A stretch of 31,484 nt of DNA. Origin: a virus (taxonomy: Duplodnaviria; Heunggongvirae; Uroviricota; Caudoviricetes). The position numbers were made by a program, and so were the translations under genes. Location of the stretch: IMG/VR virus record IMGVR_UViG_3300029517_000011; one strand, 5' to 3'. Below, piece by piece: positions 12,114 to 12,950 of the stretch. The notes under the pieces are model-generated. The model searched no databases. It saw only the letters and a list, made by a program, of their open reading frames with translations, and was not told the DNA's origin. Positions within the stretch are counted from its first letter, which is position 1. Each line of letters starts with the position of its first letter.

Positions 12114-12371
12114 GACGGTCCTTGCTATGCCTCATTGATTAATGCATATCTTGTTGATGGCTAAATTTGTAGAGACTTAATTTACCTAGAAAAGAAGATA
12201 AAATCACTAACGCGGTCCGCATTTTCTTGTTTATTGTGTTAAGAGTGGTCACTTCGGCATACAGCTTAAAACCGCTGCCGTGCGTTTTTTTGTCGTTTAT
12301 CTCTGATAATTATGGTGAATGCGCTGGTGGAGGAGGTAAGGGTGATTTTTAACCAGGTGATTTTTGAATGC

Positions 12372-12400
12372 TTGCAACATTGATTTCGTAACGTTATTAT
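12372..12400 (+). promoter_or_regulatory. Sigma-70 promoter TTGCAA-N17-TATTAT immediately upstream of the tRNA cluster; candidate late promoter (PR-prime equivalent)
   Basis: TTGCAA at 12372-12377, 17-bp spacer, TATTAT at 12395-12400; first tRNA begins at 12410. Preceded by direct repeats GGTGATTTTT (12341-12350 and 12356-12365). Confidence 0.55.
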
Positions 12401-12409
12401 CCTGCGCCC

Positions 12410-12485
12410 GGCCCTTTAGCTCAGTGGTGAGAGCGAGCGACTCATAATCGCCAGGTCGCTGGTTCAAATCCAGCAAGGGCCACCA
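12410..12485 (+). tRNA. tRNA with anticodon CAU, ileX/ileZ-like (tRNA-Ile2 lysidine type, or Met)
   Basis: Hand-folded cloverleaf: acceptor GGCCCTT/AAGGGCC, D-stem GCTC/GAGC, anticodon loop CUCAUAA, T-loop TTCAAAT, encoded CCA. Close to E. coli ileX as I recall it. Confidence 0.8.
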
Positions 12486-12486
12486 A

Positions 12487-12563
12487 CCGCCACTAGCTCA
12501 TCAGGAAAGAGCGTCAACCCTTTAAGTTGAGTGTGCGAGGTTCGAGTCCCCGGTGGCGGTCCA
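12487..12563 (+). tRNA. Atypical tRNA: anticodon loop CCUUUAA (formal anticodon UUU, Lys-like) with C instead of U at position 33; C1-G72 acceptor pair
   Basis: Folds as a cloverleaf (acceptor CCGCCAC/GTGGCGG, D-stem GCTC/GAGC with GG in the loop, anticodon stem TCAAC/GTTGA, T-arm GGTTCGAGTCC, encoded CCA) but has a noncanonical position 33 and an A-C mismatch in the T-stem. Confidence 0.55.
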
Positions 12564-12565
12564 GT

Positions 12566-12641
12566 GCCGACTTAGCTCAGTAGGTAGAGCAACTGACTTG
12601 TAATCAGTAGGTCACCAGTTCGATTCCGGTAGTCGGCACCA
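12566..12641 (+). tRNA. tRNA-Thr (anticodon UGU), thrU-like
   Basis: Acceptor GCCGACT/AGTCGGC, anticodon stem ACTGA/TCAGT, loop CUUGUAA, T-loop TTCGATT, encoded CCA. Confidence 0.8.
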
Positions 12642-12644
12642 TAT

Positions 12645-12719
12645 GCGGGCATCGTATAATGGCTATTACCTCAGCCTTCCAAGCTGATGATGCGGGTTCG
12701 ATTCCCGCTGCCCGCTCCA
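12645..12719 (+). tRNA. tRNA-Gly (anticodon UCC), glyT-like
   Basis: Acceptor GCGGGCA/TGCCCGC, anticodon stem TCAGC/GCTGA, loop CUUCCAA, T-loop TTCGATT, encoded CCA. Matches E. coli glyT as I recall it. Confidence 0.8.
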
Positions 12720-12925
12720 GTTAGAGTCTTTCAGTCTGCGATGATGGGAAAGCCCGGAGTGACTGAAAGACGTTTGGGTTATGAATGAGCGTCTTTTTTG
12801 CAAAATTGCTGTGCAGGAATAACAACCTTCGGGCAGGCGATCATTCATAAGCACTCTGCTTTTATTCCGATTAACTGTGGGTGGTTTGTTGGATAGAGTG
12901 CTTTCCTGACTGTAGATCCAATTTC

Positions 12926-12950
12926 GCCCGCTTTTGCGGGCTTTTCTTTT
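12926..12950 (+). terminator. Intrinsic terminator between the tRNA cluster and the holin gene (candidate tR-prime-like Q-sensitive terminator)
   Basis: Perfect stem GCCCGC / GCGGGC with TTTT loop followed by TTTTCTTTT. Confidence 0.55.

Follow-up and report, generated by a model that had tools for sequence, protein, structure and literature searches.

Where does late transcription begin in a lambdoid prophage that carries a sigma-70 promoter directly in front of a cluster of transfer RNA (tRNA) genes, just ahead of its lysis genes? The question is raised by IMG/VR record IMGVR_UViG_3300029517_000011, a Caudoviricetes stretch of 31,484 nucleotides (nt), called the window below, that is a lambdoid prophage of Escherichia coli. 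A preliminary description had put forward the promoter at 12372-12400 as a candidate for the late promoter PR′, under control of the antiterminator Q, and the terminator behind the tRNAs as a candidate tR′. Our analysis indicates that this promoter instead corresponds to pT, the tRNA promoter of the Shiga toxin (Stx) phage 933W, and that the locus is very probably a late-control region of the usual lambdoid form whose leader houses an autonomous tRNA unit. The late promoter itself most likely lies some 160 bases upstream of pT, as judged by alignment with relatives. The tRNA unit comprises the following features.

12372-12400, + strand: pT, the tRNA promoter, TTGCAA-17-TATTAT followed by the GC-rich CCTGCGCCC, assigned by homology to 933W pT
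12410-12485, + strand: tRNA-Ile2, anticodon CAT (ARAGORN; Rfam 72.5 bits; tRNA-Ile in the Prokaryotic Genome Annotation Pipeline, PGAP)
12487-12563, + strand: tRNA-Lys (TTT) (ARAGORN; Rfam 44.4 bits)
12566-12641, + strand: tRNA-Thr (TGT) (ARAGORN; Rfam 73.8 bits)
12645-12719, + strand: tRNA-Gly (TCC) (ARAGORN; Rfam 64.9 bits)
12926-12950, + strand: intrinsic terminator, GCCCGC-TTTT-GCGGGC plus TTTTCTTTT, which closes the tRNA unit and is the last barrier before the holin gene

The outline of this unit stands as first described. ARAGORN and Rfam (tRNA gathering score, 29 bits) place within 12410-12719 four tRNAs that are separated by 1, 2 and 3 nt and all encode CCA; the closing terminator is strong, with six G-C pairs and a folding energy of -13.7 kcal/mol that none of 200 shuffles equalled; and the whole forms a compact promoter-to-terminator module between Q and the lysis genes that resembles the tRNA region of Stx phages. 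The promoter, too, is present where it had been placed (TTGCAA at 12372-12377, a 17-nt spacer, TATTAT at 12395-12400), but 'near-consensus' was a generous term for nine matches out of 12, and a scan of 5 kb returned 4 promoter-like sites against 7.4 ± 2.3 in shuffled sequence. The consensus match alone is not above chance; the significance of pT comes from its conservation. A better sigma-70 match, with 10 of 12 positions (TCGGCA-16-TATAAT, 12633-12660), lies within the Thr and Gly tRNA genes, its TATAAT apparently located toward the 5′ end of the Gly tRNA, in the D-arm region. Because the best match sits inside tRNAs, consensus matching alone misleads here.

Comparison with 933W identifies the promoter. 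In the GenBank annotation of that phage (AF125520), from which we take its layout, Q is followed by pR′ (which overlaps the Q stop codon), qut, two terminators labelled 'possible rho-independent terminators upstream of the tRNA genes', pT, the tRNA genes ileZ-argN-argO, a further terminator and stx2A. The order is hence PR′, tR′, pT, tRNAs, terminator, and not the PR′, tRNAs, tR′ that had been invoked as the Stx-phage layout. The window promoter aligns to pT (TTGCAG-17-TATTAT in 933W) rather than to pR′, the same CCTGCGCCC follows the -10 in both, and the same 9 nt lead to the first tRNA, which in the window is identical to ileZ over 76 of 76 nt. The hairpin and U-run at 12926-12950 align with the 'possible rho-independent terminator upstream of the stx genes' that 933W carries directly after argO, and the label tR′ does not fit them. 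As in 933W and Sp5, the Stx prophage of strain Sakai, the unit starts with an ileZ-type gene, lies downstream of a PR′ homologue and upstream of the late genes, and ends in its own terminator. The differences lie in its contents and surroundings: the tRNA set is Ile-Lys-Thr-Gly and not Ile-Arg-Arg; a 205-nt trailer precedes the terminator, which in 933W directly follows argO; there are no stx genes downstream; and the DNA upstream of pT has no counterpart of the 933W methylase remnant or of the second 933W terminator, the one mapped as tR′. At the homologous tRNA promoter of Sakai Sp5, differential RNA sequencing found a separate primary start enriched by terminator exonuclease (TEX) treatment (PMC7547250).

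The behaviour of the promoter across phages shows what kind of element it is. An exact-match scan of IMG/VR with the 5′ half of ileZ returned at least 120 loci. We analysed 131 ileZ-bearing sequences, namely the listed IMG/VR loci, phage and genome loci, and the window, and 125 of them have enough upstream DNA for a count of promoter register; the counts that follow include these listed matches. TTGnnn and TATTAT or TATCAT stand in the same register in 116 of the 125, while the 80 nt upstream of ileZ fall into 49 distinct sequences in which the spacer and all positions beyond about -40 diverge. Same-strand Q genes upstream belong to PF03589 (Q-lambda) at 32 loci, to PF06323 (Q82) at 25 and to PF06530 (Q21/933W) at 21. 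The tRNA module is at least 95% identical behind Q proteins of all three families, behind each of which the four-tRNA version is likewise found, so that pT is not tied to one cognate Q family. A promoter that three unrelated Q families have in common cannot serve any one of them as its cognate PR′, and pT is therefore a separate promoter.

The flanks of the module agree with this separation. In a five-way alignment of its contexts, homology starts upstream of pT with the terminator hairpin AAACCCGCC-loop-GCGGGTTTTTT, and everything to the left of that hairpin is specific to the Q family. Loci of the Q-lambda type hold, within 146 nt after Q, TTGATT-16-TAAATT with AAYGATGGG, both aligned to the lambda PR′ region, then a terminator, and then pT abutting that terminator; we take the three motifs to be the lambda -35, -10 and sigma-dependent pause element. 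At most of the other IMG/VR loci, among the matches listed, the Q/PR′ region and pT are separated by a DNA methylase gene. In the 200 nt upstream of pT at most of the loci L014-L133, an apparent DNA methylase, recognized by its C-terminal sequence, ends at or just before the -35, and 933W retains only a 3′ remnant of the methylase gene. Terminator counts from an in-house finder, which missed hairpins with loops of more than 8 nt (933W tR′, for example), were not used; from its output we took only the position of the methylase gene next to pT at most of the listed IMG/VR loci. Finally, the predicted pT transcript starts only 2-4 nt before the mature 5′ end of tRNA-Ile2, and for this reason its initial transcribed region has no room outside the tRNA for a sigma-dependent (-10-like) pause element. 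The promoter at 12372-12400 is not itself the lambdoid late-control element.

The preliminary description had further proposed that two direct repeats just upstream of the -35 bind Q or act as an UP-like element. The repeats are present, as part of one feature.

12341-12370, no strand: 15-bp tandem duplication with GGTGATTTTT at a 15-bp period (copies at 12341-12350 and 12356-12365)

Alignment identifies the GGTGATTTTT pair as a copy-number polymorphism: single-copy alleles occur in ESBL15, whose prophage region is 99.5% identical, in phage 689R5 and at several IMG/VR loci, and the repeat is absent from 933W and PhiR47_1. The Q binding element has been described between -35 and -10 (PMC6606751); the repeats lie upstream of the pT -35, outside the promoter core. 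They are thus unlikely to form a Q-binding site, although they may serve as an UP-like element.

If pT is not the late promoter, a PR′ should lie elsewhere between Q and the lysis genes, and in the window a block of leftward genes follows Q.

10158-10529, + strand: late antiterminator Q, of the Q21/933W family (Pfam PF06530, E = 5e-52)
10546-10565, no strand: hairpin terminator common to Q and the convergent cassette, AAACGGCC-TAAG-GGCCGTTT and then a T-rich tail
10565-12113, - strand: inverted three-gene cassette, a moron that parts Q from PR′ and is a candidate defence system
12212-12220, no strand: palindrome GCGGTCCGC, candidate Q-binding element, at -32 to -24 of the putative PR′
12232-12237, + strand: predicted PR′ -10, TATTGT, aligned with TATCAT of 933W/Sp5, with a start predicted near 12244
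12244-12295, + strand: PR′ leader, by alignment the homologue of the 933W pR′-proximal hairpin and first terminator, both weakened

Directly 3′ of Q (10530-10565) we found no promoter-like site and no homology to PR′; only the hairpin terminator lies there (-15.1 kcal/mol, with 0 of 200 shuffles folding as well), and this position was ruled out. Immediately to the right of the cassette, on the other hand, 12197-12295 aligns with the pR′/qut/first-terminator segment of 933W, with the region after Q in the cassette-free relative TUM9757, and with a segment of phage cdtI that has another inverted cassette directly on its left. In the analysed data set, 16 sequence variants of the PR′ segment share the motif TAAGAGTGG; that motif and the palindrome upstream of it were encountered there in PF06530 contexts only, and in all 16 the -10 hexamer has A as its second and T as its sixth base, in register.

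The start can be placed by way of Sakai, where the primary start of PR′ was mapped together with the 3′ end of tR′ 258 nt downstream (Sy et al. 2020, PMC7547250). Adding 142 to the published coordinates, an offset assumed to reflect the difference between genome record versions, places the Sakai start 7 nt downstream of TATCAT (the A of ATAAG-A-GTGG) and makes the tR′ 3′ end coincide with the last T of the second terminator's U-run. Transferred to the window, this suggests a PR′ start near 12244 with its -10 at 12232-12237.

The palindrome upstream of this start varies, by eye, with the Q subtype: it reads GCGGTCCGC in the window, cdtI and L039, which have the window type of Q, GCGTACGC with the TUM type and TACGWWCGTA with the 933W type. 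Tracking the subtype in this way, it is a candidate for the Q binding element. Its centre lies about 28 nt upstream of the putative PR′ start (loci L004, L007, L008, L026, L035, L039, L078, L089 and L101). The Q binding element of phage 21 is a direct repeat of two TGAGCA copies between -35 and -10 (PMC6606751). As the 12197-12295 region holds no TGAGCA repeats, that element was rejected as the binding site of the window Q.

What sets the window apart is the leader. Both of its hairpins carry mutations, the small one that reads GUGGU...GCCAC in relatives and that of the terminator; folded in isolation, the latter reaches -6.4 kcal/mol with a z score of -0.5, and 50 of 200 shuffles fold as well, compared with -11.2 to -12.7 kcal/mol and z scores of -2.7 to -3.4 in TUM9757, L023 and Sakai. 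The scan reports the hairpin in TUM9757 and not in the window, which thus shows no efficient intrinsic terminator after the putative PR′, nor was any other terminator-like structure found between 12244 and pT. This leader sequence is identical in five aligned cassette-bearing sequences, from humans, poultry and a panda. In Sakai Sp5 the homologous first hairpin and U-run (L134 270-294) correspond to window 12266-12292 and are common to all contexts. Since the Sakai PR′ transcript extends over 258 nt to the second terminator, even an intact first hairpin is at least partly read through. A 36-aa 'antiterminator' coding sequence annotated by PGAP/RefSeq in TUM9757 (L004 2548-2658) crosses the PR′ leader and terminator, at a position equivalent to window 12244-12354; we took it as a spurious gene call.

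The window therefore shares with the lambdoid cassette of Q, PR′, pause element and tR′, known from the lambda 6S RNA region and from phage 21, a PF06530 Q and a PR′ homologue with its first terminator. Unlike that cassette, it has its PR′ separated from Q by the 1.6-kb inverted insertion, a weak leader terminator and no TGAGCA repeats.

Among the four tRNAs, the one with anticodon CAT is tRNA-Ile2, which reads AUA after lysidine modification; it has the pairs C4-G69 and C5-G68, which we take to be the TilS determinants separating tRNA-Ile2 from tRNA-Met. The tRNA-Lys is about 79% identical, by hand count, to 933W argN (TCG), with its stem changes paired, and in Ile-Lys-Arg clusters it occupies the argN position; from its sequence it looks like an anticodon-shifted relative of the Stx-phage argN(UCG). 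This Lys(UUU) tRNA carries C1-G72 and U73, and its charging with lysine is putative. The second position of the cluster is far more polymorphic than ileZ, with 29 distinct sequences among 59 argN copies compared with an ileZ identical in 107 of 115 ileZ-bearing sequences (listed matches included in both), and some copies at that position appear damaged. The Thr and Gly tRNAs match, at 100% and in two pieces, the chromosomal tRNA-Thr/tRNA-Tyr/tRNA-Gly locus of K-12-type genomes. We take these chromosomal twins to be thrU and glyT, and the locus to be the E. coli thrU-tyrU-glyT-thrT operon. The chromosomal operon has tRNA-Tyr between the two genes, whereas the window has no Tyr gene and sets them 3 nt apart under pT; exact copies without the Tyr gene point to recent acquisition from the E. 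coli chromosome.

The codons read by three of the four tRNAs are 2 to 7 times commoner in the prophage than in host core genes. AUA occurs at 2.4 per thousand in 39 host core genes, compared with 13.1 in early and 5.6 in late prophage genes; the corresponding host values are 4.7 for ACA and 5.8 for GGA, which range across the prophage gene sets from 11 to 33 and from 10 to 15, respectively. Because AUA, ACA and GGA are enriched in this way, we infer a codon-supply role for three of the four tRNAs, which plausibly aid the expression of AT-rich phage and moron genes.

Several points weigh against reading the locus as an ordinary late-control region with an independent tRNA unit inside it. The putative PR′ has no recognizable -35: CTAACG, at a spacing of 19 nt, comes closest, and the scan does not report the site. 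No -10-like pause element can be assigned in its leader, and none is conserved across the 16 variants. The strength and Q-responsiveness of this promoter are therefore putative, and both pT and PR′ are presumed to be active in this strain. With the PR′ terminator weakened, transcription from PR′ may reach the tRNAs even in the absence of Q and blur the separation of the two units. Codon supply, moreover, does not extend to the fourth tRNA: AAA, the codon of tRNA-Lys, is not enriched in the late genes (33 per thousand as against 37.8 in the host) and stands at 38 in the early genes, the cassette being the only enriched set at 61.5. In the matter of the -35, the relatives cdtI and TUM9757 have the same weak element at PR′.

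On balance, the proposed arrangement runs from Q through its terminator, the inverted cassette, PR′ and a leader with a weak terminator to pT, the tRNAs for Ile2, Lys, Thr and Gly, a trailer and a terminator, and so to the holin and other late genes. Under this model pT would be a stable-RNA promoter of the host type, active whether or not Q is present; its transcript would start 2-4 nt before the first tRNA and end at 12926-12950, and ribonuclease P and 3′ trimming enzymes would free the four tRNAs. On induction, Q would load on polymerase at PR′, 160 nt upstream of pT, and the modified polymerase would transcribe the tRNA unit, override its terminator and go on to the lysis and structural genes, raising tRNA output as well. 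The earlier expectation that Q-modified RNA polymerase must pass the 12926-12950 terminator to reach the holin gene is thus retained, with a different promoter as its source.

The weak leader hairpin suggests a further step, which we regard as possible though doubtful: the PR′-proximal terminator may have decayed in this lineage, so that a constitutive PR′ transcript would cross pT and the tRNAs and stop at 12926-12950, now the operative tR′. In that case tRNA precursors would replace the short leader RNA (of the 6S or StxS type) of other lambdoid phages, two promoters would supply lysogens with tRNAs, and the gate controlled by Q would stand at the site named in the preliminary description, albeit fed from a different promoter.

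It is improbable that decay has gone further and left 12197-12295 as a mere remnant of PR′, with late transcription starting elsewhere or defective. The disruption of both leader hairpins and the poor -35 would fit such a loss. However, the same allele is fixed in the five aligned cassette-bearing sequences, and the prophage region is 98.6-100% identical across 20 complete genomes with this arrangement. In the window, Q, the lysis genes and the downstream region still have long open reading frames, the -10 keeps its A and T in register, and cdtI and TUM9757 show an equally weak -35.

We give very little credence to the original proposal that 12372-12400 is PR′ itself, with GGTGATTTTT or nearby DNA binding Q, the tRNAs as leader and 12926-12950 as tR′. 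No promoter-like site is better placed than this one in front of the lysis genes, a strong terminator does lie downstream of it, and the upstream PR′-proximal terminator is weak in this lineage; yet the promoter is homologous to pT and not to pR′, it is unchanged behind three unrelated Q families, a separate lambda-type PR′ lies upstream of it in Q-lambda-type loci, a methylase gene parts it from Q and PR′ in most of the listed IMG/VR matches, its start leaves a pause element no place outside the tRNA, and the repeat varies in copy number among near-identical prophages. Just as implausible is a pT that is only a conserved, inactive relic, with the tRNAs processed solely from a long Q-dependent or leaky PR′ transcript: such processing is routine, and the weak terminator would admit PR′ transcripts here, but both hexamers and their 17-nt spacing are kept across the 49 distinct upstream sequences, whose spacers have diverged (listed matches included), and a TEX-enriched primary start is reported at the homologous Sakai promoter (PMC7547250).

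The surroundings of the locus are those of a widespread prophage. The stretch 10100-13300 is 100% identical to strain AMSHJX01 (NZ_CP030939) and is the part found whole in the 20 genomes; of 5426 complete E. coli genomes, 496 contain at least 80% of the 610-bp tRNA unit. Genes run in the order DUF968 gene, RusA, Q, three leftward genes, four tRNAs, holin S, a YdfR-family gene and lysozyme. The window Q is 87.6% identical to that of phage cdtI and 45% identical to that of 933W. Literature searches on ileZ, argN and argO yielded nothing useful. Two further features complete the region to the right of the tRNAs.

12726-12771, + strand: long hairpin of 46 nt, -22.9 kcal/mol, within the 205-nt trailer that separates tRNA-Gly from the terminator
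13011-13226, + strand: holin S, class II, phage 21 type, the first late gene (Pfam PF04971, 1.4e-35)

The trailer hairpin is kept at four other aligned tRNA-module loci and has no Rfam match. Searched with Rfam at permissive thresholds, 10400-13100 gave the four tRNAs and chance matches only, with no StxS-like or 6S-like family.

The cassette is about 1.6 kb long, with a GC content of 0.39-0.43 compared with about 0.50 in its flanks, and is absent from TUM9757. Its 293-aa protein matches PADLOC PDC-S42 (4e-27) and phrog_3243; the 87-aa and 143-aa partner proteins have no Pfam, PHROG or PADLOC match. The slot between Q and PR′ is likewise occupied by leftward-transcribed cargo in phage cdtI and, in the form of the lc porin gene, in phage PA-2, with the PR′ leader homologue immediately to the right in both. 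The cargo itself differs, as the PDC-S42-like candidate defence cassette of the window is unrelated to that of cdtI or PA-2; kinship with the cdtI cassette was rejected when comparison showed no homology. In the early region, window 4650-4821 (+) matches the sok antitoxin RNA (Rfam RF01794, 104 bits against a gathering score of 59), indicating a hok/sok-type toxin-antitoxin locus, and a 'host killer protein' is annotated upstream of the Q region in related phage records.

Taken as a whole, the cluster is an ordinary and common tRNA unit of the pT type, of a kind already annotated in Stx phages, and its only mildly unusual feature is the weakened PR′-proximal terminator in this lineage. The current understanding of lambdoid late-gene control is unchanged. 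The value of the finding lies in annotation: a good-looking sigma-70 promoter directly before the tRNAs of a lambdoid prophage is pT and not PR′, and studies of late-gene or toxin control should aim at the Q-family-specific segment upstream of it. The interval from Q to the lysis genes then follows a simple rule, in which a Q-family-specific PR′ and leader are joined to a shared terminator and a shared pT-tRNA-terminator module, with cargo such as morons, the methylase gene and the stx genes inserted at fixed slots.

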